In this document: positions 2 through 63,356 of the stretch, piece after piece
How positions within the stretch are numbered: the stretch's first letter is position 1
How the letters are laid out: every line of letters begins with the position of its first letter
IMG/VR virus record: IMGVR_UViG_3300032770_000020
Coordinates: 3,284-67,283 of that record
DNA length: 64,000 nucleotides
Strand: one strand, 5' to 3'
Source: a virus
Notes under the pieces: model-generated
Seen by the model: the letters and a program-made list of their open reading frames with translations, nothing else
Told to the model about the DNA's origin: nothing
Databases searched by the model: none
Translations under genes and position numbers: made by a program

Positions 2-346
2 CCGAGCGGGCCTGAGCTCGGGAGCTCGATCAACTACGTCGCCGCGGCGGGCGCAATCCACGACATCAACCCCGCGGGATTCGGCGCCGGCGTGGGCGCG
101 ATCATCGTCACCAACGGCGGAGGGGCGACAAGCTGCTCAGGCCTGGCGGCCGGCTCCGAGGGCCAGACCGTGCGCGTGACGTACGCGGACACGGGCAGCT
201 TCACGCTTCAGAGCCTCAACGGTGGGAGCGCGGCCGCCAACCGGTTCGAGGGGTTCGCAGACCAGACGCTGCTCAAGGGGATGAGCGTGCTGCTCCAGTA
301 CCGCGGGGCGCTCAACGGTGGCAACGGCGCATGGGGAATGGCATGA
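2..346 (+). CDS. Virion/tail structural protein, 5'-truncated by window edge
   Basis: Frame is open from base 2 to TGA 344-346; G/A/S/T-rich beta-type sequence; ATGA overlap with next gene. Confidence 0.7.
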   Translation, partial: PSGPELGSSINYVAAAGAIHDINPAGFGAGVGAIIVTNGGGATSCSGLAAGSEGQTVRVTYADTGSFTLQSLNGGSAAANRFEGFADQTLLKGMSVLLQYRGALNGGNGAWGMA

Positions 347-15702: not shown

Positions 15703-15833
15703 CCACCGCCGACGTCATAGCCAGCGTCGCCGGGGTCGCTTCGGCGGTCGGCCTGGTAGTCCACTGCTTCCTCGACAAGCTGAGGTTCCGGCAGGTGTGG
15801 CGAAACATCGGACGTCCCAAACGCAGGAGGTAG
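15699..15833 (+). CDS. Small single-TM protein with basic tail (holin/antiholin-like)
   Basis: MTTADVIASVAGVASAVGLVVHCFLDKLRFRQVWRNIGRPKRRR; ATGA overlap; directly before the endolysin. Confidence 0.55.
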   Translation: MTTADVIASVAGVASAVGLVVHCFLDKLRFRQVWRNIGRPKRRR

Positions 15834-15837
15834 GCAC

Positions 15838-16281
15838 ATGCAGCTCAGCCAGCACTTCTCTCTCGAGGAGCTTACGTTCTCCCAAGTGGCCGCGCGCACC
15901 GGCATCGACAACACCCCGTCCGATGAGGTGGTAGCGAACCTCACGCGCCTGTGCAACCTCCTGCTCGAGCCCGCGCGCGCCATGCTCGAGGTGCCGGTCC
16001 ACGTGGACAGCGGCTACCGCTCGACCGTCGTCAACGCCGCTGTGGGGGGCGCCAGGGACAGTGCCCACATGAGCGGCCGCGCCGCGGACACCGTGTTCCT
16101 CGGGATCCCCCTCGAGGAGGCCTTCGACAAGCTGCGCGCCAGCGACCTCCCCTTCGACCAGATCATCTTCGAGTGCCGTGCGTGGATACACCTGGCGATC
16201 GCCCCGGAAGGCGTCCAGCCGCGCAGGGAGGCTCTGACCGCGACCGGGCACGCCGGCGCGTGGCATTACCAGCCCGCATGA
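15838..16281 (+). CDS. Endolysin, peptidase M15A family
   Basis: LSQHFSLEE, SGYRS..VN..VGGA..SAH..GRAAD, DQIIFE..WIH. Confidence 0.9.
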   Translation: MQLSQHFSLEELTFSQVAARTGIDNTPSDEVVANLTRLCNLLLEPARAMLEVPVHVDSGYRSTVVNAAVGGARDSAHMSGRAADTVFLGIPLEEAFDKLRASDLPFDQIIFECRAWIHLAIAPEGVQPRREALTATGHAGAWHYQPA

Positions 16282-16290
16282 GGTGCCCAG

Positions 16291-16755
16291 GTGGAAGATG
16301 AAGTCCGAGTCAAGCAGCTCCCCCTCGCCCTTCGGCTATTCGTGGATGTCATCATGCTCAGAAGCACCCCGCTGACCGCCGTGTTCTGGAGCGCGTTCCT
16401 GATCGTGACGTGCTTCAACATCGCCTACGCCTGGAACTTCCTGCCGTCCTGGATCCCCATCGAGGCAGGGTTCGTGCGCATGGCGGACGAGCGGCGCAAC
16501 GACGCCCTACGCGAGGCCCGCGTCGCGCAGCTAGAGCAGAAGACCGACACGCGCATCACGGACGTGCAGAACAAGGTGGACTGGCAGCTGAAGCTCCTCC
16601 TGGTGCGGGAGATTCGGGATGCCAACACCGCGCTCTGCCACTCCCGAAGCGCCGGCGAGCGCGACAGTCTCCAGGGTTACATCGACCAGCTGATCCAGGA
16701 GTACACTCGCGTCACCGGAAACACCCTGCCCCAGCCACCGTGCCCAAGGAGTTGA
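16291..16755 (+). CDS. Membrane-anchored coiled-coil protein of the lysis cassette (possible spanin-like)
   Basis: One TM segment followed by coiled coil with two Cys. Confidence 0.55.
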   Translation: MEDEVRVKQLPLALRLFVDVIMLRSTPLTAVFWSAFLIVTCFNIAYAWNFLPSWIPIEAGFVRMADERRNDALREARVAQLEQKTDTRITDVQNKVDWQLKLLLVREIRDANTALCHSRSAGERDSLQGYIDQLIQEYTRVTGNTLPQPPCPRS

Positions 16756-48385: not shown

Positions 48386-49288
48386 ATGATGAATCGGAGC
48401 GACTTCCGCCGGCAGCTTCAGGAGGGCCTGAACGCTGTTTTCGGCATGGAGTACGACCGCTACCAGGAAGAGTGGCGGGACATTTTCGACGTGGAGACGT
48501 CGCAGAAGGCCTACGAGGAGGACGTGCTGATGTACGGCCTCGGCGCAGCGCCGGTCAAGGACGAGGGCGACTCGATCCAGTACGACGAGGGCGCGGAGAG
48601 CTACACGGCGCGGTACAACCACGAGACGATCGCGCTGGGCTTTGCCATCACCGAGGAAGCGGAAGAGGACGGCCTCTACGGCTCGATCGGGCAGAAGATG
48701 AGCCGCGCGTTGAGCCGCAGCTTCCTGCAGACCAAGGAGGTCAAGGGAGCGAACGTGCTGAACAACGGCACCTCGGCGAGCTACCCCGGTGGCGATGGCG
48801 TGGCGCTCTTCTCGACCGCCCACCCGCTGGCCAACGGCTCGGTGCTCTCGAACGTGCTGGCCACCCCGGCTGACCTGGCCGAGGCCTCGATGGAGGCGCT
48901 CGCCATCCAGATCAGCGCGTGGACCGACGAGCGGGGCATCCCGATCAAGCCGGACATCGTGCGGCTGATCATCGCGACGAACCTCCAGTTCATCGCGACC
49001 CGCCTGACCATGACCCCCTACCAGCCCGACACCGGCGACAACAACATCAACGCGATGTTCAAGCTGGGGACGATCCGGGAAGGGTTCACGGTCAACCACC
49101 GCCTCACCGACCCGCGCTTCTGGGCGTTCAAGACGAACGTGCCGGACGGCCTCAAGCACTTCGTGCGCAAGGCCATCTCGGGCGGCGTCGAGGGCGACTT
49201 CGAGACCGGCAACATGCGCTACAAGAAGCGCGAGCGGTACAGCTTCGGCTGGACCGACTGGAGGGGCGCCGCGTCCGGCGGAGTCTGA
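48386..49288 (+). CDS. Major capsid protein (Mu gpT-like HK97 fold)
   Basis: GLNAVFG.EY, YNHETIALGFAITEEA.ED.LY, GDGVALFSTAHPL, GDFETGNMRYK.RERYSFGWTDWRG. Confidence 0.92.
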   Translation: MMNRSDFRRQLQEGLNAVFGMEYDRYQEEWRDIFDVETSQKAYEEDVLMYGLGAAPVKDEGDSIQYDEGAESYTARYNHETIALGFAITEEAEEDGLYGSIGQKMSRALSRSFLQTKEVKGANVLNNGTSASYPGGDGVALFSTAHPLANGSVLSNVLATPADLAEASMEALAIQISAWTDERGIPIKPDIVRLIIATNLQFIATRLTMTPYQPDTGDNNINAMFKLGTIREGFTVNHRLTDPRFWAFKTNVPDGLKHFVRKAISGGVEGDFETGNMRYKKRERYSFGWTDWRGAASGGV

Positions 49289-49337: not shown

Positions 49338-49368
49338 GCCGGGCGGACTCACCTCCGCCCGGCATTTT
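49338..49368 (+). terminator. Rho-independent terminator after MCP
   Basis: GCCGGGCGGA-N6-TCCGCCCGGC-ATTTT. Confidence 0.7.
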
Positions 49369-49421
49369 CCTAGGGTCTAACTGACGCGGTAGCCAACCCG
49401 CGGCTCAAAGGAGCCTGTCAC

Positions 49422-50105
49422 ATGACCACTCGACACACGATTTCCCGCGCTGACACGCTGTACTCGCAGCGCGCTTACTACCCGCCGGCGAACCCGCTGC
49501 CGGGCCTGCCGATCAGCCCCACCAACTACGTCAACTTCGGCGCGATTGCGGCGGCCTCTGCCAACGCCATCTGCACGAACCAGGCGTCCGGCGCCGGCAA
49601 CGCGCTCAACATCAACGGCGCCCTCGCGGCCGCGGGTGTCGCCACCATCCCCACGCCGCGCAACGTCGTGGCTGCCTGGACCACGGCGGCGCAGATCACC
49701 GTCACCGGCACGGATTACTACGGCCAGCCGCAGACCGAGCAGTCGGGCGGCGGCGTCACCGCCTTCACCGGCAAGAAGGCCTTCGCCACGATCACCGCCG
49801 TCACCTTCTCGGTCGCGGTCACCGCGGCCACCGTCGGAACCGGCGTCAAGATCGGCCTGCCGTACCTGGTAGGCGTCAACGGCATCCTGGACGCGCTCAC
49901 CGACAGCCTCCCCGACGTGGGCTACACCCTCGTCGTGGGCGACCAGACGAGCCCGGCGACGTCCACCACGGGTGACGTGCGCGGGACCATCGCCGCGACC
50001 ACGGCGCCCAACGGGGCGCACCAGTACGCGGTCAACCTGGTGGTCTACGACCGCACGGGCGGCGTCGACCAGAAGTCGGGTGCCTACGGCGTAACCCCGG
50101 CTTAA
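49422..50105 (+). CDS. Virion structural protein
   Basis: TPRNV, GTDYYGQ, GKKAF, ATSTTGDVRGT. Confidence 0.75.
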   Translation: MTTRHTISRADTLYSQRAYYPPANPLPGLPISPTNYVNFGAIAAASANAICTNQASGAGNALNINGALAAAGVATIPTPRNVVAAWTTAAQITVTGTDYYGQPQTEQSGGGVTAFTGKKAFATITAVTFSVAVTAATVGTGVKIGLPYLVGVNGILDALTDSLPDVGYTLVVGDQTSPATSTTGDVRGTIAATTAPNGAHQYAVNLVVYDRTGGVDQKSGAYGVTPA

Positions 50106-50115
50106 GGAGTCCCAC

Positions 50116-50676
50116 ATGCGTACCGAAGTCGTGGTGTCGCTGGCGGCACTGGGCGCGAGCGCCTGGGTCCCGGTGAACTACCACCAGCGGAACTTCAAGC
50201 TGAGCCTCGCGGCCACCATGGACAACGGCGCCGCGCTTGGGACGGGCACCTGGAAGATCCAGCTCACCGACGACGACCCGAACCTGTCGCTGCCGATCAC
50301 ACCCACCAGCATCACGCGCGCCGCGGCCGTCGCGACCGTCGTGCAGCCTGGGCATGGTCTGCGGACCGGGGACTGCGTCATCGTCTTCGGGAGCGGGGAT
50401 CCGGTGAACCTCGACACCCAGGGCTCCGACGTGACCGTGGTCGACGCCAACACGTACACCTACGCGGTGCCGAACGCAGGCCTCCTGGCGGCGCTTCCCA
50501 CCGTGAGGCTGATCACGCTGAGGGTGCTCGACCACGCGACCATGACGGGGCTCACGGTGGCGACCTACGGAAGCCTCGAGGACCCGGTGCGCGCGGTACG
50601 TTCGCGCGTGACCGTGGCCGGGGCGGGGAATCTGCGGCTGGTGGTGACCCAGGCGCAGGGCGGAACGGGCGGATAG
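50116..50676 (+). CDS. Virion structural protein with beta-barrel insertion
   Basis: SITRAAAVATV..PGHGL.TGD.V....VTVVDANTYTY. Confidence 0.7.
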   Translation: MRTEVVVSLAALGASAWVPVNYHQRNFKLSLAATMDNGAALGTGTWKIQLTDDDPNLSLPITPTSITRAAAVATVVQPGHGLRTGDCVIVFGSGDPVNLDTQGSDVTVVDANTYTYAVPNAGLLAALPTVRLITLRVLDHATMTGLTVATYGSLEDPVRAVRSRVTVAGAGNLRLVVTQAQGGTGG

Positions 50677-50693
50677 CCCGAAGGGGGAGCGAC

Positions 50694-53600
50694 GTGATGC
50701 GGAAAGTCGTAATCGCCTTGATGCTCGCGGCGCTCCCCGCGCTCGCCTGCGCCCAGAAGGTCTCGACCCTGCCAGCGGCGACCACGCCGCTCGGCGGGAA
50801 CGAGGTCATGCCGTGCGTCCAGTCGGGCGCGTCCTTCGGCTGCAAGGCCTCCTCGATCGGCCTGGCGGGCGTTTCCCTGATCACGGGCGACTGCACGGCT
50901 ACCGGAGCCGGCGTCATCACGTGCATCTCGACCAACGGGGTGCCGTTCGGCACCTTCGCGACACAGAGCTATGCCAGCCCGCCAGCGATCGGCGGGACGA
51001 CCGCTAACTCCGGGCGCTTCTCCTCGCTCACAGACACCGGCATCACGGGCCTCAACCAGTGCCTGCACGCCAACAGCTCGGGCGTCATCTCGGGAACCGG
51101 CAGCGATTGCGGCTCCGGTGGTGGTGGCGTCACGGCCACGGGCTCGCCGGTAAGCGGAAACCTGACCAAGTGGTCCGGCAGCAACACCATCACCAATGGC
51201 GACCTGGCGGGCGACTGCACGACCTCGGGGACGCTTTCGATCACGTGCCTTAAGACCAACGGCAGCAACTTCGTCGCGAGCGCCACGACCGATACCACCA
51301 ACGCGAGCAACATCACGAGCGGCACCCTGGGCGCTGGGCGCATGCCGCTCGGCATCACGGCCACGCCGAGCTCCGGCCAGCTCCTCATCGGGAACGCCGG
51401 CGGGACCGCCTACGCTGCCAATAGCCTCAGCGGCGACTGCACGATCACCTCCGCGGGCGCGATCACGTGCCTCAAGGTCAACGGCGTGTCGTTCGCGACG
51501 TCGGCTACCACCGACACCACCAACGCCTCGAACATCACCTCGGGGACGCTGGGAGCGGCCAGGATGCCACTAGGCATCACGGCGACCCCATCGGCAGGGC
51601 AGCTGCTGATCGGAAACGCCGGGGGTACGGCGTACGCCGCAAACAGCATGACTGGGGACTGCGCCATCACCTCGGCCGGCGCCGTCACCTGTACCAAGAC
51701 GAGCGGGACGTCCTTCGGGACGTTCGCGACCCAGAATTACGCCACGCCCCCGACCATCGGAGGCACTACGCCGGCGCCCGGCTTCTTCACCACGCTCTCG
51801 GCGACGGGGGCCCTCACGACCAATGTCACCGGCGGCGGCATTCAGTGCCTGCACGCCAGCAACACCGGCGTCGTGACCGGGACCGGGAGCGACTGCGGAT
51901 CGGGTGGCGGGGCCGTGTCGTCGATATCCGGCGACGGTACGCTGATCACCAATTCGAGCTCGAGTGGCGCGGTCACTCTCACCCTGGGCAACACGGGCCT
52001 CGCGTACGGGGTCTGGGGAGGGATCACGGGCTCGAGCGCCGCCCCTGCCTACCACTCGCTCTCGAGCTACCCCGGGGCAGCCTTCCCGACGCTCAATCAG
52101 AGCACCACGGGCAACGCCGCGACTGCCACGGCGCTCGCCGCGACGCCCAGCCAGTGCTCCGGCACGCAGCTCGCGAACGGCATCGCGGCGTCCGGGAACG
52201 CGAACTGCACGGCCACCATCAACGCCAGCGAGGCGAATGGCGCCGCTTTCCCTGCGGGCGCCGCCCTGGTGGGCACCAATGGCTCGAGCCAGGTGACCGC
52301 AGTCACCCTGGCGAACGGCCTGGCTGAGTCGAGCGGGGTGCTCGGCACCACCTACACCATCCGCAGCGTGTCGGGCACCACGGACACGATCGCCTCGACC
52401 GACTGCGCCTACGGGGTCAATTACACGAGCTCGAGTTCGGTTGCGATCACTCTCCCGCAGGCTACTGGCAGCTTCGCCGTGTGCACGGTTGAGATCCAGA
52501 ACACCGGGACCGGCACGGACACCGTCACGCCGACCACCAGCACGATCAACGGCGCCTCGAGCCTCCCGATTCCGCCAGGGCGGTTCTGCTCGATCGTCGC
52601 CGTGAGCGGCAACTACCTGGTCAACGGATGCAACGCGGTCACGCCAGCTACCAACCTGGCGGCCGGCGGAGTGGGAGGGGTCACCGGGACCACCGGCGTG
52701 GGCAACGGTGGGACCGGGATCGCGAATCCCACGGCCCACAACCTGCTGATCGGCAACGGCTCGAGCACCATGAACCAGCTCGCGCCGTCCTCGACGTCGG
52801 GCGAGGCTCTGGTATCCAACGGCTCCTCGTCCGACCCCGGCTACGCGACGACCCTCCCGGGGGTCACGTCGGTCAACGGGACGACCATCGCGGCGTCCGC
52901 TGGGACTGCGCCAGGCTCGACGGGCGCCTTCACCGCCGGGGACTGCCTCAAGGTCGGCTCGACCAGCCCGCTCGAGATTCAGGACCAGGGCGCGGCCTGC
53001 GGCTCCGGTGGCAGCGGAATCACCCAGCTGACCGGGGACGTCACGGCGGGCCCGGGATCCGGGTCCCAGGCTGCCAGTGTGGTCAAGGTGAACGGCGCGG
53101 CGGTGGCCGCGAGCGCGAATCTCCTCGCCAGCAACTCGTCCAGCCAGATCGTGAGCGCGAGCCTCACGCAGTACGACCTGTTTTCCGGCGGGGCCTCAAA
53201 CGCGCTCAACCAGATCGCGCCGAGTTCCACTGCCGGCCAGGTGCTCATATCGAACGGGAGCTCGTCCCAGCCCGGCTATTCGGCCAGCGCCGCGGGCCTG
53301 ACGAGCGCCAACGGCACGAACATACCGGCGTCCGCGACCCTCCTGGTGAGCGGTGGCGCTCTTGGGACGCCGAGCTCCGGGACCGCGACGAATCTGACCG
53401 GGCTTCCAGTCGGAGGTATCGCCTCGATCGGAGCCAATACCGTCGTAGCGAACGCGACCGGCTCCAGCGCCTCTCCCACGGCCGTAGCGGTCTCGTCCCT
53501 GACGATGTCGCAGCTGCAGGCCGCCACCACGTTCACCGTGTCCGGGACCGGCTGCACGCCCTCGGCGCACACCGGGACGGCATTCGCCGGTACTGTCACC

Positions 53601-53828
53601 CTCGCGAGCGGGCCCTGCACCTCGATCACCGTCACCATGAACGGGGCGACGGGATTCACCGCGACCACCGGCTACCACTGCAACGTGGGCGACCGGACCA
53701 CCCAGAACGCCGGGACCTGGATCCCCATGTGGGGCGAGAGCGCGACGTCGACCAGCACGGCGACCATACCCATACCGGCGGCGGCGGGCGTGACCGACGT
53801 CATCTCGTTCCAGTGCACGCCGTACTGA
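50694..53828 (+). CDS. Repeat-rich tail fibre-like protein with Sec signal peptide
   Basis: MRKVVIALMLAALPALACA|Q; shares Cys-paired repeats with 343..2943. Confidence 0.8.
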   Translation: MMRKVVIALMLAALPALACAQKVSTLPAATTPLGGNEVMPCVQSGASFGCKASSIGLAGVSLITGDCTATGAGVITCISTNGVPFGTFATQSYASPPAIGGTTANSGRFSSLTDTGITGLNQCLHANSSGVISGTGSDCGSGGGGVTATGSPVSGNLTKWSGSNTITNGDLAGDCTTSGTLSITCLKTNGSNFVASATTDTTNASNITSGTLGAGRMPLGITATPSSGQLLIGNAGGTAYAANSLSGDCTITSAGAITCLKVNGVSFATSATTDTTNASNITSGTLGAARMPLGITATPSAGQLLIGNAGGTAYAANSMTGDCAITSAGAVTCTKTSGTSFGTFATQNYATPPTIGGTTPAPGFFTTLSATGALTTNVTGGGIQCLHASNTGVVTGTGSDCGSGGGAVSSISGDGTLITNSSSSGAVTLTLGNTGLAYGVWGGITGSSAAPAYHSLSSYPGAAFPTLNQSTTGNAATATALAATPSQCSGTQLANGIAASGNANCTATINASEANGAAFPAGAALVGTNGSSQVTAVTLANGLAESSGVLGTTYTIRSVSGTTDTIASTDCAYGVNYTSSSSVAITLPQATGSFAVCTVEIQNTGTGTDTVTPTTSTINGASSLPIPPGRFCSIVAVSGNYLVNGCNAVTPATNLAAGGVGGVTGTTGVGNGGTGIANPTAHNLLIGNGSSTMNQLAPSSTSGEALVSNGSSSDPGYATTLPGVTSVNGTTIAASAGTAPGSTGAFTAGDCLKVGSTSPLEIQDQGAACGSGGSGITQLTGDVTAGPGSGSQAASVVKVNGAAVAASANLLASNSSSQIVSASLTQYDLFSGGASNALNQIAPSSTAGQVLISNGSSSQPGYSASAAGLTSANGTNIPASATLLVSGGALGTPSSGTATNLTGLPVGGIASIGANTVVANATGSSASPTAVAVSSLTMSQLQAATTFTVSGTGCTPSAHTGTAFAGTVTLASGPCTSITVTMNGATGFTATTGYHCNVGDRTTQNAGTWIPMWGESATSTSTATIPIPAAAGVTDVISFQCTPY

Positions 53829-53829
53829 C

Positions 53830-56088
53830 ATGAGCCTCATCACACGCCGCGGGTTCCTAGGCCTCCTCGCCGCGCTGTGCCTGTCTGGCATCGCGCAGGG
53901 CGCCATCACGCGCGTCGGCGTCGTCACGGCGAGCGCCACCACCTGCACCTTCACCACCCACCAAGCGGGCGACTTCCTGGTCGTGTGGGCGGTGCGCGGA
54001 GGGTCCACGACCGCTCCGACGCTCCCATCCGGGTACGTCAGCATCCTCACCAAGAGCAACAGCACGGCCACCACGCTCGCCGGAAGGCTGGGCTTCAAGG
54101 TCGCGACGACCACCAACGACTCGAGCGGCACCTGGACAAACGCCTCCGAGCTCGTCTGCGCGGTCTACCGACCATCCTCTGGCAACACGATCCTCTTCGG
54201 GCAGTTCGCCTCGAGCAGCTCGACCACCGCGACAGTCACCTTCCCTGCGCTGAGCCCCATGGGGGACTCAAGCAGCGGAAACTCATGGGCGCTCGGGCTC
54301 GTCGGGGCCAGCAACACCACCCAGGCGATCGGCACCGCCCCGAGCGGAATGACCAATGAGGCGCTGGTCACCGGGGCGAGCTACCAGGCTGCGCTCCATG
54401 ACACGAACGCAGGCGTCTCTTCCTGGTCTAGCACCACTGCCAACGTCACGAGCACCGGAAGCACCATCTCCGCGACCATCGAGATGGTCCTCCTGCCGAA
54501 CACCGCCCCGACCAACGTCTATTCGTACATCGGCGGCGGCACGAACTGGTCCGGCAAGGGGGCGGTGGCGAGCACCACCTACAAGCTGCCTTTCCCGAAG
54601 GTCAGCGGCACTGGCAACACCGTCGTCTTCGGCTTCACGACGACCGGCGGCATCTCGGTCTCGAGCGTCAGCGGCTCCTGCAACGGCAGCTACGGGTCAC
54701 CTGTGGTCACGGCCACCGGCGGCAACCTCGACAGCCGCATGTACGTGCTGCCGAACATCACGTCCTGCGCGAGCCCCGAGCTCATCACCGTAACCTTGGG
54801 GACGGCTGAAAGCGTCTTCTCGTACTTCATCCTCGAGCTCAACGGGGTGACGACCTCGGCCTTCACGGCCACGAGCGGCACCACCATCCAGAGCCGCGCG
54901 AACTCGACGACCCAGAACACCGGGAGCATGACGCCCCCGAACAACAACGCCACGGGCGGCAACATCGTCGTCTCCTGGCACCAGAAGTCCGACACCACGC
55001 CGACCACCACCACGACGGAAATCTTTGCTGGGGCCAACTTCGTACCGCTGACGCTCAACAACGCGTACGGCTTCACCGACGGCAACCCTTACGCCGTGCA
55101 GCTACAGGTGCAGGGGACCAGCGCGGCGCTGACGCCCGGAATCGTCTCGGTAGCAGACGCCGCTGATAACTGGAACAGCCTCGCCGTCGCGATCAAGGTC
55201 GCGAGCGGGTCAGGCACGGCGCCGCCAGCTGGCATCCAGGTCAACGACATCCTGCACATGACCACAGGGCAGTTCCCCGGGAGCGGCACCTACCGCATGC
55301 GGGTGCCCTTCTATGGGAATGCTCGGGTTGTCGCCTGCACTGACCCGAATCTCAACACGCTCACCGCCACCGACAGCGAGGGCAACAGCTGGACGGCCGT
55401 CTCAACCAGCGGCATCTTCTACTTCGGCAACGCGAGTGCGAACCCGAACCTCGAGGTCTACATCACCGGGGGAGGCGGCGACTCGAACGTCTCCTGGCGC
55501 ACGGTCGATGTGTCGGGCGCTGCAACGAGCCCGTTCGACGTCGGCGCCCTGATTGCCGACGGCAGCACGGGCACGACCTACACGCCGAGCGCCAAGCCCT
55601 CGCCCACCGTAGCGAATGACCTTGTCATCGAGAACGTCGGGCTCGGACAGGGACCGGGAACCGCCGTCACCGCACCTGCTGGGGCAATTTGGGACTTGGC
55701 GACCTACACGGGAGAGACCGACATCGACGGCATCGAGAACGCCGACATCATGGCGCACTACAAGGCCAGTTCGACTGGCTCCATCACCTTCACCTACACC
55801 GTCGCGAATTCGACGAGCAGCTCGGGCGGCTACATTGCGCTCAAGCAGGCGACGGGCGGGACCTGCACCCACAATGGCTACACCAATGGCGGGGCGAGCG
55901 CGCTGCCGAATGGCACGAGCGGCTCCTATGTCGGAAAGTCCGGGAGCTTCGTGACGCCAGACTGCTCGACCATCCAGTACTGGCAGCCGGCGCTCGGTAA
56001 CTTCGGGACCACCTCCATCTGGGTGCCACCATCGGAGCGCGAGGCCGCCAACGACGGTCGGTACCGCAAGGCCGCGGGGATGCCGTGA
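53830..56088 (+). CDS. Beta-rich virion-type protein with twin-arginine (Tat)-like signal
   Basis: MSLITRRGFLGLLAALCLSGIAQG|A; S/T/G-rich repeated domains. Confidence 0.75.
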   Translation: MSLITRRGFLGLLAALCLSGIAQGAITRVGVVTASATTCTFTTHQAGDFLVVWAVRGGSTTAPTLPSGYVSILTKSNSTATTLAGRLGFKVATTTNDSSGTWTNASELVCAVYRPSSGNTILFGQFASSSSTTATVTFPALSPMGDSSSGNSWALGLVGASNTTQAIGTAPSGMTNEALVTGASYQAALHDTNAGVSSWSSTTANVTSTGSTISATIEMVLLPNTAPTNVYSYIGGGTNWSGKGAVASTTYKLPFPKVSGTGNTVVFGFTTTGGISVSSVSGSCNGSYGSPVVTATGGNLDSRMYVLPNITSCASPELITVTLGTAESVFSYFILELNGVTTSAFTATSGTTIQSRANSTTQNTGSMTPPNNNATGGNIVVSWHQKSDTTPTTTTTEIFAGANFVPLTLNNAYGFTDGNPYAVQLQVQGTSAALTPGIVSVADAADNWNSLAVAIKVASGSGTAPPAGIQVNDILHMTTGQFPGSGTYRMRVPFYGNARVVACTDPNLNTLTATDSEGNSWTAVSTSGIFYFGNASANPNLEVYITGGGGDSNVSWRTVDVSGAATSPFDVGALIADGSTGTTYTPSAKPSPTVANDLVIENVGLGQGPGTAVTAPAGAIWDLATYTGETDIDGIENADIMAHYKASSTGSITFTYTVANSTSSSGGYIALKQATGGTCTHNGYTNGGASALPNGTSGSYVGKSGSFVTPDCSTIQYWQPALGNFGTTSIWVPPSEREAANDGRYRKAAGMP

Positions 56089-58466
56089 GGAGCGTCCTCG
56101 CCATCCTGCTAACCCTCGCCGTCACCGCGCCCTGCGAGGCGCGTCACGGGCGTGGCGGCCCCGCAGCGGCGCTCCTTCTGCTGCCGGCCGTCAACAACAT
56201 CGCCACCAACTGGCAGAACGCGGGCCTGCAGCCCGTCGGAGGTATCCCGACGAGGAGTACGCAGTGCGGTTCCACGGTAAGCCCCAGCGGCCTCACGCCG
56301 CCGACCAGCGGGGACGATGCCTCGCTCATCCAGGCAGCGATCAACGCCTGCACCGCTGGCCAGGTCGTGCAGCTGGCCTCGGGCACCTTCAACATCGCCA
56401 TGTCGGAGGTGATCGTCCTCGGCAAAGGGGTGAGTCTGCGCGGCACGGGCTCCTGTACCAACGGCTCGACGCCGTACTGCTCGACCGCCATCGTGGTCTA
56501 CAACGGCATGCTGGCGTGGACCGGCGGCCAGTGTGGTGTCGATACCTCGCACGAAGTCGCCTGCACGTCTAACGCCGCGATCGAGGTGCAGCCCTCGGCC
56601 GCCGCTAACCAGTTCGACTTCGGGTGGTCCGGCAGCATGGGCCATTGCGGGCTCCTTTCGTCGGCCATTGGCTGCGGAACCCCGGTAGATGCGGACGCGG
56701 CGCAAGGCGCGACCACGATTCAGGTGGCGAGCACCACCGGTTTCTCGGTCGGCACCTGGGCGCTGATCGACGAGGCCTCGGGCGCCACCTGGCAGAACGA
56801 TCCGGTGGGCCCGAACCTGCGCGGCCAGGTCTGGGCGGCGCCGGATTGGCTGAGCGCCTCCCCGAGCCCGGCCACCGGCCGTGTGCAGTGGGACAAGTAC
56901 GGGAACGGCACCGGAGACATGGGCACCGGCGATTACCCGTACAACAACCCCCACGTCATCCAGTCGCTCTACGATCGCGCCACCTCGGAGATCCACGTCG
57001 TCACGGCAGTGGGAGCGGGACCGTGCCCGGGCACCAACTGCACGCTCACCTTCGACGACCCTGTCACGGTCGCCTTCCGCAAGAGCGGCGCCACGACGTT
57101 CACCGGTTCGACTTCCGGCACCACGCTCACCACCAGCGGGGATAACTGCACCACCACCGTGGGACAGATTGTCGGGGACGCCACCGACACGCTGCTCGAT
57201 GGGACCTATGTAACCGCGGTCAACTCCTGCTCGGGCGGCGCTGGCAACTACACGATCAGCCGCTCGCAGACCGTCTCGAGCGAGACCATGTATGGAGGGG
57301 CGCACCAGGCGCACGTCTACTTCCCGACCAAGCAGAACGGTACCGCGATGGCCTTCATCAGCCAGGCGGGGGTCGAGAACCTCACCATCTCGAGGCCGAC
57401 GAGCGGGGGCATCAACTTTCAGTTCTGCGCCTACTGCTGGGCTAAGAACGTCGAGATCGTCAACTGGGGCGGCGGGGCGGTGAATTTCAGCTACACCGTG
57501 CGCGACCAGTTCGACACCTCCTTCGCCAATAACTGCGCCTACAGCGTGAACAATGGCGGGGAGTACCCGCTCGGCATCCAGGACGCCTCGACCGAGATCT
57601 ACATCGTCAACAGCATCACCAGGCTGTGCGGCAAGGGCATGGTTGGCAAGGCCGCGGCGGCCGCCGTGGTGGCCTACAACTACGTGGACGATTCGTTCTA
57701 CGACTACTGGTCGGCGATCGGCAACTATTGGGAGGACATGAGCGTTAACGGCTCGCACTTCGCTGGCACGCACCACTTCCTCTTCGAGGGCAACTGGGGC
57801 AGCAATTGCGACAACGACGATACCCACGGCAACGCGATGTATCACGTCTACTTCCGCAACGACTGCACCGCGCTGCGCACGCCCTTCACCGACCCCAGCA
57901 TGGTGGCCAACGGACAGAGCGCGAACGCCGCGGTGAATGATGCGGCTGGCACCGGCTGGGAAGTGACCACCGGCCAGCCTGGCTCGGCCGACACCCCAGG
58001 GGTCCTGCGCGCGGCAGGCCCGATGCTGCACAACTACTGGCTGGCCTACGTGGGCAACGTGCTCGGGACCTCCGGCACCACCACGGCGGGGAACGGCTGG
58101 ACGTACTCGGGCGACTACAGCTCGAGCAAGCACATCTGGATGCCGGGCTGGAATTCGGACTCCAACAACCCGACGAAGAGCGACCCGAACATCAATGGCG
58201 TGTCGGCCACCTACCTGTTCAAGAGCGGCAACTTCGACTTCCTCAACGGCTCGATCACGGATTGGGCCTCGGGCTATTCGCAGACGCTGCCTAACTCGCT
58301 CTACCTTACGTCGACGCCTGCGTTCTTCAGTGCTGGCAGTTGCACGTATCCGTGGCCTTGGATCACGCCGACGGCTTCGCCATACGTGAAGACCAACAGC
58401 TGCTCGGGCTCCGGCCTGCCCGCGCAGGCCCGCTGGAACGCGGGCACGCCGTTCGTCCAACCGTAG
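56085..58466 (+). CDS. Pectate-lyase-like beta-helix (tailspike/depolymerase-like) with signal peptide
   Basis: MRSVLAILLTLAVTAPCEA|R; DDASLIQAAINAC..GQVV.L..GTF; GVENLTI; C..CW.KNVE. Confidence 0.75.
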   Translation: MRSVLAILLTLAVTAPCEARHGRGGPAAALLLLPAVNNIATNWQNAGLQPVGGIPTRSTQCGSTVSPSGLTPPTSGDDASLIQAAINACTAGQVVQLASGTFNIAMSEVIVLGKGVSLRGTGSCTNGSTPYCSTAIVVYNGMLAWTGGQCGVDTSHEVACTSNAAIEVQPSAAANQFDFGWSGSMGHCGLLSSAIGCGTPVDADAAQGATTIQVASTTGFSVGTWALIDEASGATWQNDPVGPNLRGQVWAAPDWLSASPSPATGRVQWDKYGNGTGDMGTGDYPYNNPHVIQSLYDRATSEIHVVTAVGAGPCPGTNCTLTFDDPVTVAFRKSGATTFTGSTSGTTLTTSGDNCTTTVGQIVGDATDTLLDGTYVTAVNSCSGGAGNYTISRSQTVSSETMYGGAHQAHVYFPTKQNGTAMAFISQAGVENLTISRPTSGGINFQFCAYCWAKNVEIVNWGGGAVNFSYTVRDQFDTSFANNCAYSVNNGGEYPLGIQDASTEIYIVNSITRLCGKGMVGKAAAAAVVAYNYVDDSFYDYWSAIGNYWEDMSVNGSHFAGTHHFLFEGNWGSNCDNDDTHGNAMYHVYFRNDCTALRTPFTDPSMVANGQSANAAVNDAAGTGWEVTTGQPGSADTPGVLRAAGPMLHNYWLAYVGNVLGTSGTTTAGNGWTYSGDYSSSKHIWMPGWNSDSNNPTKSDPNINGVSATYLFKSGNFDFLNGSITDWASGYSQTLPNSLYLTSTPAFFSAGSCTYPWPWITPTASPYVKTNSCSGSGLPAQARWNAGTPFVQP

Positions 58467-58475
58467 GGGCAAAGC

Positions 58476-59216
58476 ATGGGAACGTCAGGCACCTACAACT
58501 ACGGCTCGCTCGTCCGGGAGCTCTTCGACGAGGGCTTCGAGCGCGCTGGGATAGACCTGGTGGCGATCGGGACCTACCACCTCAAGGGCGCGTTCCGCTC
58601 GCTGCGCCTCATGCTGAACTCGGAGTGGTCGACTCTCGGCATCCGGCAGTGGCAGATCATGGAGGCGCAGACGCACACGGTCTCGGTGGGCGAGACCAAC
58701 TTCCTGCTCCCGGTGGGGATGCTGGACATCACCGAGGCGGTGCTGCGCCGGCAGGGCGCTGGCGTCACCCCGGCGGACGTCGAGATGTACCCGATCACGC
58801 GCCAGGAATACATGATGATCACCAACAAGCTGATCAAGGGGCGGCCGGATCGCTACTTCGTGGACCGGCAGTTCGGGCAGAAGGTGGTCTACTACTGGCA
58901 GGCGGGCTCGAACACCACCGACCAGATCATCTACAACGGCTTCCACCAGAATCAGGACGTGGCGGACAACCTCGCCGCGAACCTCGACATCCCAACTTAT
59001 GCGAACGAGGCGCTGGTGGCAGGCCTCGCGGCGAAGTTCGCCCTCAAGTGGAACTTCCCTAAGTACCAGGCGCTGATGGAGTATTACGCCGGCCCGCAGT
59101 GGTCGCAGAACCCGCTCAACCCCGGCGGCGTCCTGGGGATGCTGCGGACCGAGGACCGCGAGCGCGGTGACATCACCACCTACCCGGCCTTCGAGCCGCG
59201 GACTGGCAGGCGCTGA
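58476..59216 (+). CDS. Head-tail adaptor protein
   Basis: TSGTY, E.FERAG, RSL.LML.EW..LG...W, I.R.EY..I.NK...GRP..YF. Confidence 0.75.
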   Translation: MGTSGTYNYGSLVRELFDEGFERAGIDLVAIGTYHLKGAFRSLRLMLNSEWSTLGIRQWQIMEAQTHTVSVGETNFLLPVGMLDITEAVLRRQGAGVTPADVEMYPITRQEYMMITNKLIKGRPDRYFVDRQFGQKVVYYWQAGSNTTDQIIYNGFHQNQDVADNLAANLDIPTYANEALVAGLAAKFALKWNFPKYQALMEYYAGPQWSQNPLNPGGVLGMLRTEDRERGDITTYPAFEPRTGRR

Positions 59217-59488
59217 TGCTCGAGGGAAAGAAGCTCGAGGACGAGACCGCCGAGACGCTGTGGGCCTCATACGCCGAGACGCAGCTCCCGCCGGTGAGCG
59301 AGACCGGCGAGTTCATCCGCGAGGAGCTCCGCAAGGCCTTCTACGCCGGTGGGTGGACCATGCTCGCGCTCGAGCAGCGGCTGCGGCGTGACACGGCTGA
59401 GCGCAGCACCGCTCTGCTCGACCGCCACCGCGAAGAGACAGAGGCCTTCCTGCGCAGCGTCGGCGCTGCCGGCCAGCAGCCGCACTGA
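59216..59488 (+). CDS. Hypothetical protein
   Basis: ELRKAFYAG motif; TGATG overlaps on both sides. Confidence 0.65.
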   Translation: MLEGKKLEDETAETLWASYAETQLPPVSETGEFIREELRKAFYAGGWTMLALEQRLRRDTAERSTALLDRHREETEAFLRSVGAAGQQPH

Positions 59489-61077
59489 TGGCCAAGCAGT
59501 ACGCAGTCGGCGCGCGCGCCTGGGGCATCTGCGGCCGCTCGGGCCGGAAGATGCTGCTCAAGGACATGGTGTTCGATGGGCGCTACCCAAACATGCGCGT
59601 CGACCCGGACTGGTACGAGGCCAGGCACCCGCAGGAGACGCTCCCGCGCGTCGAGGACCCGGTCGCGCTCTACCGGCCGTCGCCCGAGGTCATCGCCGCG
59701 CCCACGGCGCCAGAGCTCTCCATCGACATCGTAGGCGGCTCGCCCCAGCTCACGTGGACCCCGGCCGACTCGGACATCACCGAGATCGCGAGTTACGACA
59801 TCTACCGCGGGCTGAACGGCGCGACGCCGACGCTGCTCCTCTCCTGCGCCGTCGAGCGGGACTTCCTCGGCGGCATCATCGGGGTCGACGACTGCACGCT
59901 CGCGATCCTGCCGGAGCACCCGGGCGACCCGTGGACCAATGTGGTCGAGGATTGCCCGATCATCTACCTCGATGCTGGCGAGTCGCAGCCACTCCTCAAC
60001 GAGAACGGGCAGCCGCTGCTTAACGAGGACGGCCAGCCGCTCATGAGCGAGGGCGGCCCGCTGCCGCCTGGCGCGTACTGCTACTACATCATCGCGAACC
60101 CGATGGGGAACAACATCTCGACCGCGCAGGGCCCTCCATCCGCGCCCTCGAACACGGTCTGCGTGACCATCTCCTCGGCGCTCGACTGGACCTTCCGCGG
60201 TGACATCGCCGGCGCGAACGCCATCTACGGCGTGGCGACCGACGGCGCGGGCCTCACGCTCCTCGTCGATGGCGCTGGACACGTCTACGCCTCGACGGAC
60301 GGTGGCCACACCTGGGCGCTGCGCTCGAGCATCCCGGGCGGTCTGCTGCCTTCCTACGGCAACCTCCAGTACGGGGATGGCGTGTGGATTTTCGGGGCCT
60401 ACGGCACCGACGTCGCGCGCTCGACCGATGGCGGGAACACATGGTCCACGATCGCCACCGGCATCGCGAGTGCGGGCCAAGGCTGGGTGGGGACAGACGG
60501 CGCCGGAAACTGGGTCCTCTGGGGCAACACCGGCCCGGTCACGAACAATTACGCCCACTCCTCGGACGGCGGCGCCACCTGGTCGATGTCCGGGACCTTC
60601 GACAACGGCGGGGTCGATACGCCGCCATTCTGGGACGGGGCTCAGTGGGTCGCGCTGGTGCTGAACGCCGCCCAGACGGACACCGTGATCGCGACTTCCG
60701 CGGACGGTGCGACCTGGGTGGCGAGCCTCCCGTCCCACGGGCTGGATGTCATCGGCTTCATCGGCGGCCTTTACGTGGGCGCGGACGGCAGCGGCGCGCG
60801 CAGCTCGAACACGGCGGATGGCCTCGCGTCGGCGAATCCCGTCGGCGTGCCCGGAATGGGCAACCCTGAGGCGATCGTCGGCACGGCGGGGCTGTACTTC
60901 ATCTTCGACAACGCCGGGCAGGTGTTCAACTCGCCGGACTTCCAGAACTGGTTCCAGGGCGTCGCCAACCTCGCGGGCGGCGAGTCCGTGGCGCGCGCGG
61001 GGAACGTCGCCTATGACGCCGCCAACGCCTCCTACATCGCCGGCGGCAACGCTGGGTCAGTGATTACCTACCCATGA
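59488..61077 (+). CDS. Tail protein: conserved N-terminal module + FN3-like + Asp-box (BNR) propeller
   Basis: AWGICGRSG...HPQ...DP.AL.RP; LTW....Y.IYRG; STDGGHTW, STDGGNTW, SSDGGATW, SADGATW. Confidence 0.75.
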   Translation: MAKQYAVGARAWGICGRSGRKMLLKDMVFDGRYPNMRVDPDWYEARHPQETLPRVEDPVALYRPSPEVIAAPTAPELSIDIVGGSPQLTWTPADSDITEIASYDIYRGLNGATPTLLLSCAVERDFLGGIIGVDDCTLAILPEHPGDPWTNVVEDCPIIYLDAGESQPLLNENGQPLLNEDGQPLMSEGGPLPPGAYCYYIIANPMGNNISTAQGPPSAPSNTVCVTISSALDWTFRGDIAGANAIYGVATDGAGLTLLVDGAGHVYASTDGGHTWALRSSIPGGLLPSYGNLQYGDGVWIFGAYGTDVARSTDGGNTWSTIATGIASAGQGWVGTDGAGNWVLWGNTGPVTNNYAHSSDGGATWSMSGTFDNGGVDTPPFWDGAQWVALVLNAAQTDTVIATSADGATWVASLPSHGLDVIGFIGGLYVGADGSGARSSNTADGLASANPVGVPGMGNPEAIVGTAGLYFIFDNAGQVFNSPDFQNWFQGVANLAGGESVARAGNVAYDAANASYIAGGNAGSVITYP

Positions 61078-61742
61078 TCCCCTACTGGACCTACACGACC
61101 CTCGCCCAGGCCCTCCAGGACTGGCCGGTGCACAGCTCCTCCAAGTACCTGGCGAACCTGCCGAACATCATCGGCCTGGGGGAGCGCAGGCTCTGGGGCG
61201 ACCTCAACGTCGAGGAGTACGACGTCGACGACACCACCACGGTGCAGTCGGTCATCGGCACCCCGCAGATCGCCAAGCCGGCCGATTCGCTCCAGGTGCG
61301 AAACGCGGGGCTCATCATCGCTGGCGTCTACATCCCCCTCGAGCAGCGTTCGCTCGACTACTGCAAGCTCTTCGCAGCAGGCGTCGGCGCCAACGCCCAG
61401 CCGCAGTTCTGGGCCGAGCTCAACTACCTGCAGATATACGCCGCTCCGACCCCAGACCAGGCCTACCAGATGGCCTTCCACTACATGGGGACGCCGGCGG
61501 AATCGCTCATGCCCACCGCGCCGAACGCGACGACCTGGCTCTCGCGCGTGGGCCCCGATGCGCTGCTCGCCGCCTGCCTGGCGGAGGCCGAGCACTACAT
61601 CAAGGCGGACGACCGCTACCAGGACATGGTCAACAAGTACACCCAGGAGCTCCTGCCGCGGCTGCGCGCGGAGGTCCGGCGGTCCATCCGCGCTGGCGAC
61701 CCGGGCCCGCTGCGCGCCGCACCTGCGCCCGCGGAGGGATAG
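61074..61742 (+). CDS. Tail/adaptor structural protein
   Basis: TY.TL.....W, I.L.E.RL..DL, APTPD..Y, TTWLS...PD.LL.ACL.EA. Confidence 0.75.
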   Translation: MIPYWTYTTLAQALQDWPVHSSSKYLANLPNIIGLGERRLWGDLNVEEYDVDDTTTVQSVIGTPQIAKPADSLQVRNAGLIIAGVYIPLEQRSLDYCKLFAAGVGANAQPQFWAELNYLQIYAAPTPDQAYQMAFHYMGTPAESLMPTAPNATTWLSRVGPDALLAACLAEAEHYIKADDRYQDMVNKYTQELLPRLRAEVRRSIRAGDPGPLRAAPAPAEG

Positions 61743-61745
61743 CCC

Positions 61746-63356
61746 ATGCCGGCCGACTCATACAGCGCGCGACTCCGGCTCCGGCTCCAGGCCACCGGCG
61801 GGAACACGAACACCTGGGGGTCGCTGCTCAACACGGCGGACATCCAACTGCTCGAGGACTCGGTCTGCGGCATGGCCACGATCATCGTGGCGGCCGGGGA
61901 CGTCACGCTGTCGGCGAACAACGGCGCCACCGACCAAGCGCGCATGGCGATCCTCAACCTCACCGGCGTCCCCACCGGCCCGAAGAACATCAACGTCCCC
62001 GGGGTGAGCAAGAACTACACCGTCATCAACGCCACGGGGCAGGTGATGACCGTGCAGGTCTTCGGGGCTGGCGGCGCGACGGTAGCCATCCAGCCGGGCA
62101 CCGCGCAGCTCGTCTACTGCGACGGCACGAACGTGGCGACCCCATCGGCTTTGGCGGCCGGGACCGTGGCAGACTCGGCTGAGCTCGGGGGCATCCCCGC
62201 GGCGAGCTACGCGCGCCTCGATATCTCGAACCTCTTCCTGGCGGCAGGGGCCTGGCAGTTCAACAACCTGGTCGACGGCGCGACGATCACCGCCAACCTG
62301 ATGCTGTCGAACAACCACTACGTGCAGCTCGGGGGCAATCGCGCGCTGGTCCTCAACAATCCGGAGGACGGCCAGCGGCTCGAACTCTGGATTTCCCAGG
62401 ACGCCACCGGCGGCCGCACGCTCACGTGGCCCGCGAATGTGCGCTTCGAGGCGGGGAGCTCTGGGATGCTCTCAGGCACGGCCAACGCGCTGGACCGCTT
62501 CCAGCTCACCTACAACCTCGCCCAGAACGTCTACATCGCGAGGCAGGGCCTCCAGTCCGCCGGCGCCGGTACCGTCGGAATCGTCATCGACAGCAACGAG
62601 GTGGCGCTCGACCTCTACACGCGCGCGGGCTCCCCTGCGGGCGCCGTGGTGGTCAACGTCACGGTAAACGCCGGCGTCACGATCACTGCGCCGGACGTCG
62701 GCACGCCGGCGATCGACATGAGGGGGTTCGCAGCCGGCTCGACCATCAACCTGGTCAACCTCGGCTACATCCTCGGCAAGGGCGGCCGCGGCGGAGACGG
62801 CGGAGAGATAGGCCAGGGCGGCAGCACCGCGACCGACTACTCGGCGGGCAAGCCGGGCATCAACGGCGGCACGGCGCTCCTCGCGCCGGGCGTAGGCATC
62901 ACCGTCAACATCACCAACGCCAACGGCTACATCTGGGGCGGCGGCGGCGGTGGTGGTGGCGGCGGCGCTGCCATGGCTGGCGGTGGCGGCCAGTGCGGAA
63001 ACGGCGGCGGCGGTGGCGGCGGCGCTGGCGGCGGAGATGCGGGGCTCGGCGGGACCTCCTGCAACACCGTCGGGAACAATGGCGCGAATGGCACCCCGGG
63101 AAGCACCGGCAGGCTGGGGGCTCTCGGAGCGGGCGGCGCCGGCAAGGGGACCACCCAGACCGCTGGCACTGGCACCGGCGGGGCCGGTGGCGACTGGGGA
63201 TCCGGTGGCCAGGCGGGCGTCGCGGCGACGGGCGGCGGCAACGTCGTCCCCCCGGGCACCTCGACCTCTGGCGGCAAGGCCATCGACCTGAACGGCGGGG
63301 CGGTCAACCTCCTCTCCGGCGGCGGCGGCCCGAACATCAAGGGATTAATCGCGTGA
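61746..63356 (+). CDS. Tail fibre with polyglycine (gp38-adhesin-like) receptor-binding tip
   Basis: N-terminal L.LQATG.N..TWG anchor; C-terminal G.I.GKGG.GG, YIWGGGGGGGGG, GGKAI. Confidence 0.8.
   Translation: MPADSYSARLRLRLQATGGNTNTWGSLLNTADIQLLEDSVCGMATIIVAAGDVTLSANNGATDQARMAILNLTGVPTGPKNINVPGVSKNYTVINATGQVMTVQVFGAGGATVAIQPGTAQLVYCDGTNVATPSALAAGTVADSAELGGIPAASYARLDISNLFLAAGAWQFNNLVDGATITANLMLSNNHYVQLGGNRALVLNNPEDGQRLELWISQDATGGRTLTWPANVRFEAGSSGMLSGTANALDRFQLTYNLAQNVYIARQGLQSAGAGTVGIVIDSNEVALDLYTRAGSPAGAVVVNVTVNAGVTITAPDVGTPAIDMRGFAAGSTINLVNLGYILGKGGRGGDGGEIGQGGSTATDYSAGKPGINGGTALLAPGVGITVNITNANGYIWGGGGGGGGGGAAMAGGGGQCGNGGGGGGGAGGGDAGLGGTSCNTVGNNGANGTPGSTGRLGALGAGGAGKGTTQTAGTGTGGAGGDWGSGGQAGVAATGGGNVVPPGTSTSGGKAIDLNGGAVNLLSGGGGPNIKGLIA

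Follow-up and report, generated by a model that had tools for sequence, protein, structure and literature searches.

Export leaders on fibre-like and predicted depolymerase-like proteins encoded among the structural genes of an uncultured soil podovirus

Background

Tailed-phage particles are taught to be assembled in the reducing cytoplasm, where their fibres are likewise made without a leader. What, then, is the role of large, in part cysteine-rich proteins that a tailed phage encodes among its head and tail genes with export leaders at their N-termini, and could such proteins reach the particle at all? This question is raised by a window of 64,000 nucleotides (nt), i.e. bases 3284 to 67,283 of the IMG/VR record IMGVR_UViG_3300032770_000020 (67,283 bp, completeness rating 100%), which covers the greater part of the 67-kb genome of an uncultured soil podovirus. 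Three consecutive large genes between the capsid and the tail-adaptor genes of this window, encoding the proteins P0001, P0002 and P0003, and a fourth gene at position 343, encoding P0208, depart from the standard of leaderless, cytoplasmic assembly. A first-pass annotation of the window had proposed that such products are exported, folded oxidatively and joined to the particle at or after lysis, or else displayed on the infected cell.

Export leaders on four genes

All four genes lie on the + strand. The fibre-like P0001 (also P0205; 1043 amino acids (aa); 50697..53828) starts either with GTG at 50694 or with ATG at 50697, the latter with a strong ribosome-binding site, GGGGGAG, 8 nt on its 5' side, and bears a leader of the general secretory (Sec) type in residues 1-19 (50697-50753; MRKVVIALMLAALPALACA, cleavage predicted before Q). 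It is followed by P0002 (752 aa; 53830..56088), in which a leader resembling those of the twin-arginine translocation (Tat) route occupies residues 1-24 (53830-53901; MSLITRRGFLGLLAALCLSGIAQG, cleavage predicted before A), and by the beta-helical, predicted depolymerase-like P0003 (793 aa; 56085..58466), whose GTG start overlaps the stop of P0002 and whose Sec-type leader comprises residues 1-19 (56085-56141; MRSVLAILLTLAVTAPCEA, cleavage predicted before R). The fourth protein, the fibre-like P0208 (866 aa; 343..2943), has a Sec-type leader in residues 1-20 (343-402; MTRRLLVALVALALAAPAHA, cleavage predicted before Q), and its gene overlaps by ATGA the stop of an upstream 126-aa tail-module gene.

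Each of the four leaders possesses a charged n-region, a hydrophobic core of 10-15 residues and small residues at -3/-1. The three Sec-type leaders are laid out as MRK-VVIALMLAALPAL-ACA before Q (P0001), MR-SVLAILLTLAVTAP-CEA before R (P0003) and MTRR-LLVALVALALAAP-AHA before Q (P0208), in agreement with a criterion of a positive n-region, an uncharged core of ~7-15 residues and small residues at -3/-1, all within <=~35 residues of the start. Leaders were called with a strict home-made rule and by inspection by eye: the rule flagged nine of the 234 six-frame open reading frames (ORFs) of at least 100 aa, four of the nine being the genes in question, and at its background of ~2% three adjacent flagged ORFs would be expected by chance at ~1e-5. 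In P0002, residues 5-11 (T-R-R-G-F-L-G) fit the Tat motif S/T-R-R-x-F-L-K ahead of the hydrophobic core; we call this leader Tat-like only, because its score with the profile TIGR01409 falls under the cut-off.

The leaders are conserved. Among the matches listed, the home-made rule flags 98/119 homologues of P0001 and 81/119 of P0003; about half of the non-flagged P0003 homologues are, by eye, truncated gene calls, and the closest ones (P0086, P0131 and P0164) retain the leader. The homologues of P0002 present a different picture: 57/81 begin at, or only a few residues away from, the site where cleavage is predicted in P0002 (34 by the pattern M-[AS]-I-[ST]-[RL]-[VI]-G, 23 by eye), whereas ~20/81 bear a leader themselves, in some cases with twin arginines (e.g. 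'MISRRALLAGL' in P0030). Because most P0002 relatives begin where cleavage is predicted, the leaders are genuine add-ons that front otherwise complete proteins. The signal peptides that the first-pass annotation had described on the three consecutive genes, and on the fourth at 343, are thus seen and kept in close homologues; its own proviso, that the true starts might lie downstream, finds no support in P0002, which lacks a start codon at the point that corresponds to the first residue of its leaderless relatives.

Cysteine pairs and their relation to leaders

The mature proteins contain 26 (P0001), 7 (P0002), 20 (P0003) and 16 (P0208) cysteines, and those of P0001, P0003 and P0208 form 13, 10 and 8 neighbouring pairs, respectively. 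For comparison, no cysteine is present in the capsid protein (0/300 residues), in the adaptor (0/246) or in three internal proteins (0/335, 0/527 and 0/2629). P0001 features four GD-C-x9-C repeats, a repeat that it has in common with P0208. We scanned 120 listed proteins (query included) for the corresponding fibre repeat GD-x-(9)-x-xK..G and found 90 instances: both cysteine positions are occupied by cysteine in 57, neither is in 33, and a single cysteine never occurs. Double-cysteine repeats are found almost throughout in leader-bearing proteins (54/57), and the remaining three belong to two N-terminally incomplete proteins and to one with a late leader (by eye). The leaderless P0315 and P0321, with 0 cysteines, have A/G...V at the same positions. 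In the P0003 family, 12 cysteines are invariant or nearly so in an alignment of 36 sequences.

The cysteines would thus appear to act as pairs that require export. This does not extend to P0002: its 7 cysteines are unpaired and not conserved, which is why our statement on paired cysteines is limited to the three Sec-type proteins, and the closely spaced pairs that the first-pass annotation ascribed to the whole cluster are borne out for these three but not for the Tat-type one. The cysteine density of the P0002 family is alike with and without leaders (1.00 vs 0.82 per 100 aa); with 57/81 homologues leaderless from the same domain boundary on, a protein of this kind can be expected to fold in the cytoplasm, and P0002 fits the Tat route because its cysteines are unpaired and unconserved and their density is alike in both groups. 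Taken together, leaders that are conserved and added on, and cysteine pairs that co-vary both mutually and with the leaders, make the proposed export and oxidative folding of the products highly probable.

Character of the four proteins

P0001 and P0208 are built of repeats common to leaderless phage-type fibres. The repeats of P0001 type are 59% identical over 75 aa to the leaderless P0321, and the mature N-terminus of P0001 recurs at the start of a leaderless 205-aa protein of phage DSL-LC05 (69% over 26 aa, a short match), in which I and V replace Cys40 and Cys49 and whose gene adjoins one for a tailspike. By type, both proteins may be regarded as trimeric-fibre-like; their N-terminal module, repeats and slot in the structural operon are those of tail fibres. 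A likeness of the mature N-terminus of P0208 to that of the leaderless fibre in a close relative (G001, see below) was dropped as weak and too short. The predicted complex of three P0208 mature N-terminal segments (150 aa) with the upstream 126-aa protein scored 0.00, a prediction run without controls that counts neither way.

Pfam yielded 0 families for P0001, P0002 and P0003 (no S74 domain among them) and PHROGs only two families of unknown function; sequence searches of the same three against PDB chains returned nothing usable. P0208 has no match in PHROGs or Pfam. A tblastn search of 50,697 GenBank phage records gave no match to P0001, P0003 or P0208, in which the low-complexity filter may hide fibre repeats, and P0001 alone, as a query for related loci in IMG/VR, found no relative. 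In the same phage records P0002 is represented by its N-terminal domain only, in 3 records.

The model of P0002 (predicted local distance difference test, pLDDT, 82) has three beta-sandwich domains (26-223, 230-460 and 470-673) and a disordered tail, on which basis we consider it a putative lectin-like three-beta-sandwich protein. The N-terminal domain is a module of ~200 aa that is found both as stand-alone viral proteins and within bacterial surface proteins. Two of its homologues, P0070 and P0071, have prepilin-type N-termini (KGFTLL... and RGFSLVEIL...); therefore the beta-sandwich module is also fused to pilin-like leaders.

P0003 was modelled with AlphaFold2 as a right-handed beta-helix that begins near residue 78 (pLDDT 70, predicted template modelling score 0.75), and its best Foldseek matches are phage capsule depolymerases or tailspikes: 7w1c (E 9e-9, probability 1.0), 7vul, 4ru4 and 9k4a. 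PF13229 (Beta_helix) matches some of its homologues, not P0003 itself. Many D, E, H, R and Y residues are invariant, with no assignable active site, and the mature N-terminus has the invariants N42, W43, G47, G52, G53 and C61. The model thus predicts a polysaccharide-depolymerase-like enzyme. The family is large: of 1.84 billion cluster representatives, 1311 match at E<=1e-3 and 210 at E<=1e-30. The homologues listed are 45-75% identical over near-full length with ~19-22 cysteines.

This family is not confined to phages. Bacterial members occur at 48 loci in soil metagenome-assembled genomes (MAGs) of Alphaproteobacteria, Acidobacteriaceae, Myxococcota, Bdellovibrionota and Gammaproteobacteria, on contigs of up to 2.6 Mb, often in tandem copies and sometimes beside leader-bearing homologues of the P0002 C-terminal domains. 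No neighbour at these loci resembled a member of the phage protein set used, which is small, so that prophages may have escaped recognition. In a quick tree of 53 rows, restricted to hits that cover query residues 420-770, viral and cellular copies interleave, with at least five forced changes of label. The end branches of viral copies in this quick tree measure 0.3-0.9, those of most cellular copies 0.003-0.3, which suggests that the family may change faster in phages.

Homologues of P0003 adjoin homologues of the C-terminal two domains of P0002 in phages and bacterial chromosomes alike (L022, 5098-15669; L029, 7032-12571; L008, L011, L012, L014 and L016), and at L029 both partners bear a nearly identical leader. 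Judging from gene neighbourhood, this looks like a conserved two-protein unit.

Operon organization and variable slots

The gaps around the three adjacent genes, counted from the capsid side to the adaptor, amount to 18, 1, -4 and 9 nt. A terminator-like hairpin follows the capsid gene (49338..49363, + strand; a 10-bp stem with 9 GC pairs, then ATTTTCC), and is probably an attenuator that sets the ratio of capsid to tail expression. A crude consensus scan detected 0 promoter-like sites in 47500-63990 and no further terminator-like site on the + strand in 49364-60882, the next being at 60883. Because there are no flanking promoter- or terminator-like sites and the gaps do not exceed 18 nt, expression of the leader genes looks late and lytic, together with the head and tail genes.

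A relative with a 90% identical capsid protein (G001) holds one different leader-bearing protein (889 aa, 16 cysteines) in the slot between capsid and adaptor, and a leaderless collagen-like fibre of 301 aa in the slot of P0208. Since different proteins are found there, the slots turn over like receptor-binding genes. A leaderless, collagen-like (G-x-y) tail-module protein of 124 aa is encoded at L076 2057-2431 (genome coordinates, outside the window), and in G001 the 301-aa fibre is located two genes beyond.

Relatives of P0003 occur in 14 IMG/VR contigs from several phage types, at least eight with a plain N-terminal leader by eye, and are situated within structural modules, beside genes of the P0002 family with or without leaders. 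One 106.8-kb contig (L009, 1235-16344) belongs to a contractile-tailed phage (tail sheath, E 4e-111) and has about eight consecutive leader-bearing ORFs. This run includes a fibre of 2177 aa with 30 cysteines, as well as a protein of 691 aa that contains SRRGFLGG, a motif of the Tat type (TIGR01409, 12.8 bits).

Genome context

The window has a G+C content of ~68% and no tRNA genes, and encodes a large terminase (PF17289), a portal (phrog_1216), ejection-type proteins and an M15 endolysin. The features given here with coordinates are on the + strand. The major capsid protein (48386..49288; PF25209, E 2e-12) shares ~50% identity with its counterparts in Planktothrix phage Pag-Yong1, Roseobacter phages CRP-901/902 and pelagiphage HTVC023P. 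It is followed, immediately 5' of the variable slot, by two small genes of the head module (227 and 186 aa; 49422..50676), for which family searches gave no informative match and which are conserved in a close relative (77% and 51% identity to ORFs of L068). On the far side of this slot follows a tail (portal) adaptor homologue recognised by sequence identity to annotated adaptors (246 aa, 0 cysteines; 58476..59216; 37% identity, E 1e-37, to the CRP-902 gp54 'tail adaptor', and 34% to the Pag-Yong1 'portal-adaptor protein'). The interval between capsid and adaptor holds only two to four small genes in Pag-Yong1 and CRP-902, in contrast to the three genes of 1043, 752 and 793 codons that fill it here.

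Farther downstream are an SU10-type adaptor-like tail protein (222 aa; 61074..61742; PF24175, E 1.7e-14; phrog_2941) and a conventional tail fibre (536 aa, 4 cysteines; 61746..63356; five tail-fibre PHROGs, best E 1.4e-7), which is 57-61% identical over 397 aa to its counterparts in the relatives L067 and L068. As the first-pass annotation had stated, this fibre has no signal: its N-terminus is without a hydrophobic stretch. The lysis cassette (15699..16755) comprises three ORFs: a 44-aa holin-like ORF with one transmembrane segment (15699-15833), the leaderless M15 endolysin (15838-16281; PF08291, E 1.5e-19; phrog_894) and a 154-aa protein with an N-terminal transmembrane segment and a coiled-coil-like remainder, a possible i-spanin (16291-16755); the roles of the first and third are suggested by their sequences.

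A cysteine-free internal-type protein of 2629 aa (7813-15702) combines three enzyme domains: InPase (PF18823, E 5e-43), GGDEF (E 7e-10) and RadC-like JAB (E 5e-14), with an HExxH motif by eye. It resembles a polyvalent protein and may be injected with the DNA. Two small enzyme-like genes between the P0208 gene and the ejection genes (4063-5198), both kept in G001, encode a protein with a PHROG 'hydrolase' match (phrog_10855, E 1.5e-47) and a PRSGT motif, and an Asp/Asn beta-hydroxylase-like cupin (PF05118, E 8e-9). Asp/Asn beta-hydroxylases modify cysteine-rich EGF domains in eukaryotes, and by analogy a link between the cupin and the cysteine-rich fibres is conceivable. Finally, a 112-aa ORF of the early region (24903-25241) has an N-terminal hydrophobic segment ending in the lipobox-like LVSGC and is possibly a membrane or lipoprotein gene.

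Discussion

The best overall explanation of these data, to which we assign a probability of about 0.5, is that the four products are exported late proteins, of which the fibres dock on the particle and the depolymerase-like protein is free. We infer actual export, disulfides, glycan targets and docking. The host would be a diderm, probably an alphaproteobacterium, into whose periplasm Sec would pass P0001, P0003 and P0208, to fold there and to form disulfides from 13, 10 and 8 neighbouring cysteine pairs, respectively. P0002, whose relatives as a rule fold in the cytoplasm, would cross ready-folded by means of its Tat-like leader. The holin would then let the leaderless endolysin through the inner membrane, and the products would become available as the envelope breaks. 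Once cytoplasm and periplasm mix, the fibres could dock on finished particles, while P0003, without a docking module, would work mainly as a free, disulfide-stabilised enzyme. Two fibres, the lectin-like P0002 and the depolymerase-like P0003 would in this case constitute a set aimed at glycans of the host surface.

More tentatively, and with odds that we put somewhat below even, this can be widened to an assembly in two compartments, with heads and tails made in the cytoplasm, and with fibres, lectin and depolymerase exported by Sec or Tat, disulfide-bonded and mounted after the holin breach, an arrangement that would be common among soil phages with several kinds of tail and whose parts would be exchanged with secreted proteins of the hosts. 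Whether at least one product is bound to the particle is an evenly balanced question: the fibre modules and gene slots held in common with leaderless phage fibres speak for docking, as does the record of Cellulophaga phage phi18:3 (see below), which marks leader-bearing proteins as constituents of the virion.

Several observations weigh against export, against docking, or against parts of this explanation. The rule behind the leader calls is crude. The Tat signal that the first-pass annotation read in P0002 has the motif T-R-R-G-F-L in its favour, but TIGR01409 gives only 15.9 bits for the first 60 aa and 12.5 for the whole protein at a cut-off of 16.7, no Pfam family matches at E<=0.01, and the c-region has no basic residue. 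The Foldseek search with the P0002 model returned only low-probability beta-sandwich matches and no convincing relative in the PDB; the quality of the P0003 model is middling (pLDDT 70), with template modelling scores (TM-scores) to depolymerases that reach only 0.25-0.3. That P0001, P0003 and P0208 have no relatives among the GenBank phages leaves no tie to a cultured system, and some P0001 homologues are located on contigs of >90 kb. With respect to docking, the phage has a conventional leaderless fibre of its own, the mature N-terminus of P0003 aligns with cellular homologues and shows no extra N-terminal particle-binding domain, and the nearest relatives of P0003 are three chromosomal copies from Alphaproteobacteria MAGs (approximate likelihood-ratio test 99, quick tree), in which the family stands in non-phage contexts. 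Leader-bearing phage-like fibres are moreover used on cells, as in the MAT fibres of Bdellovibrio (PMC10769870).

Some of these observations would be accommodated if the products, although exported and folded oxidatively, never joined the particle: lysis, or before it a secretion system of the host, would set them free as enzymes, lectins and fibres. In this state they would bind or strip exopolysaccharide and receptors, both on debris and on cells nearby, and thereby aid the escape of progeny and their reach of new hosts. We regard this as a serious possibility, although one that we doubt rather than favour. It agrees with P0003 being a full-length orthologue of cellular secreted proteins without any added domain, with viral and cellular copies that interleave in the tree, and with the leader-bearing pairing of P0003 and P0002 C-terminal homologues in the chromosomal loci L022, whose neighbours are of the polysaccharide chain-length type as judged from their N-termini, L029, whose neighbours are pseudopilin-like on the same criterion, and L024, which carries tandem copies of the P0003 family. 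The P0002 N-terminal domain also occurs in bacterial surface proteins, and the phage already owns a leaderless fibre. However, P0001 and P0208 retain N-terminal modules and repeats seen in phage fibres that have no leader, the translationally coupled P0208 occupies a slot that in a close relative belongs to such a leaderless fibre, the structural operon holds the genes in tight packing and without signals of their own, and the record of Cellulophaga phage phi18:3 lists leader-bearing proteins of the virion that were detected by tandem mass spectrometry (MS/MS).

Conversion or exclusion factors are known from lambda (Lom, Bor), T5 (Llp) and Streptococcus mitis (PblA/PblB). Alternatively, the products might be displayed by the infected cell or the lysogen in its envelope, where they would mask receptors or serve as adhesins, which we consider improbable. 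Leaders would route them to the envelope, the content of the slots varies between close relatives in a moron-like manner, and the MAT fibres (PMC10769870) are leader-bearing, phage-fibre-like adhesins of the cell surface. Against this stand the late, lytic appearance of genes that are spaced by no more than 18 nt without flanking promoter- or terminator-like sites, and a route that with Sec or Tat alone ends in the diderm periplasm, given that an outer-membrane anchor, an autotransporter and a lipobox are absent in the four proteins. Sizes of 750-1040 aa and a depolymerase-like enzyme are likewise unlike known exclusion proteins.

The view that the hydrophobic N-termini are not export signals at all but mis-called starts, inner-membrane anchors for assembly or products of chance can draw on the GTG codons involved in the starts of genes 1 and 3, on the Ala/Leu/Val-rich frames that high-GC DNA yields and on the Tat profile score under its cut-off, but it is very improbable, and chance and mis-called starts were dropped, in view of upstream genes that end 1-18 nt before the leaders, the start codon lacking at the leaderless position in P0002, leaders in the closest homologues and in most members of two families, the low background of the rule and cysteine pairs that track the leaders.

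Should the explanation by late export and docking of the fibres be true, Sec, Tat, DsbA and signal peptidase would be host determinants of phage infectivity, and screens based on cytoplasmic expression would miss or mis-express the receptor-binding proteins of many uncultured soil phages. Secreted modules that bind or cut glycans would form a common stock for phages and bacteria, and disulfide-stabilised phage depolymerases would be attractive as robust enzymes. Even the more modest reading, in which free enzymes mature in the periplasm, adds to the late products of phages a class that is at present annotated as hypothetical.

Comparison with known systems

Full-text searches of the literature, judged mainly from listings and abstracts, returned no paper in which fibres or spikes of tailed phages are described as having leaders, and supplements might hold such data; in the passages of PMC5026251 that were covered, signal peptides are named only in the methods. 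The nearest parallel is the Cellulophaga phage phi18:3 (NC_021794, Pachyviridae), a cultured podovirus of ~71 kb. As in the phage described here, its large genes gp085, gp086 and gp087 are adjacent and have Sec-type leaders (MKNKITIIMILMSISFGYSQ, MKKTIYILSILLLTISGVSAQ and MKHTFSIVLFFILSIGLNAQ), and the notes of the GenBank record, our only source on this point, describe the products as virion, structural or tail proteins 'based on experimental MS/MS proteomics analysis'; a literature search aimed at Cellulophaga phages brought up no text that takes up these leaders. The parallel has its limits: the host of phi18:3 belongs to Bacteroidota, the three proteins contain 0, 1 and 3 cysteines and thus no disulfide signature, a Tat-type leader is absent, a tblastn search (1e-3) of 43 kb of phi18:3 with the proteins of our phage gave no match, and the MS/MS listing may reflect proteins that co-purify.

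Virion-borne beta-helix depolymerases are leaderless, fold in the cytoplasm and possess N-terminal particle-binding domains. The Klebsiella K1 lyase (7w1c) and the enzymes of phage P560 (7vul), LKA1 (gp49, 4ru4) and K64-1 (S2-4, 9k4a) match P0003 in fold (E 9e-9 to 6e-7) and are of similar size. P0003 differs from them in its leader, its 20 cysteines and the lack of an extra N-terminal domain, in addition to the low TM-scores given above and an identity of ~11%. The cellular members of its own family are far closer (45-75% identity, with the conserved cysteines in common and with leaders of the Sec or lipoprotein type), but they are chromosomal and often in tandem or fused to Ig-like or chitobiase-C domains, and their source names give no function.

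Export signals as such are familiar from morons in or beside tail-fibre regions, such as lom and bor of lambda, llp of T5 and cor of phi80. Morons of the lom/bor type encode small outer-membrane proteins or lipoproteins with expression signals of their own, which act in exclusion or serum resistance, in contrast to the genes described here, which encode fibre-like, lectin-like and enzyme-like proteins of 750-1040 aa without promoter- or terminator-like signals of their own. The MAT fibres of Bdellovibrio bacteriovorus have, according to Caulton et al. 2024 (PMC10769870), a signal peptide, a conserved N-terminal domain of ~130 aa and swappable tips (S74 or other). They combine a leader with a long, phage-tail-fibre-like trimer that works outside the cytoplasm, as our fibre-like proteins would, but they are encoded by the cell and displayed on the surface of the predator, whereas the genes here belong to a phage late operon. 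Measured against these systems, the present locus establishes a variant of known receptor-binding and depolymerase genes of phages together with phage-encoded exported proteins, while an assembly in two compartments would be categorically new.

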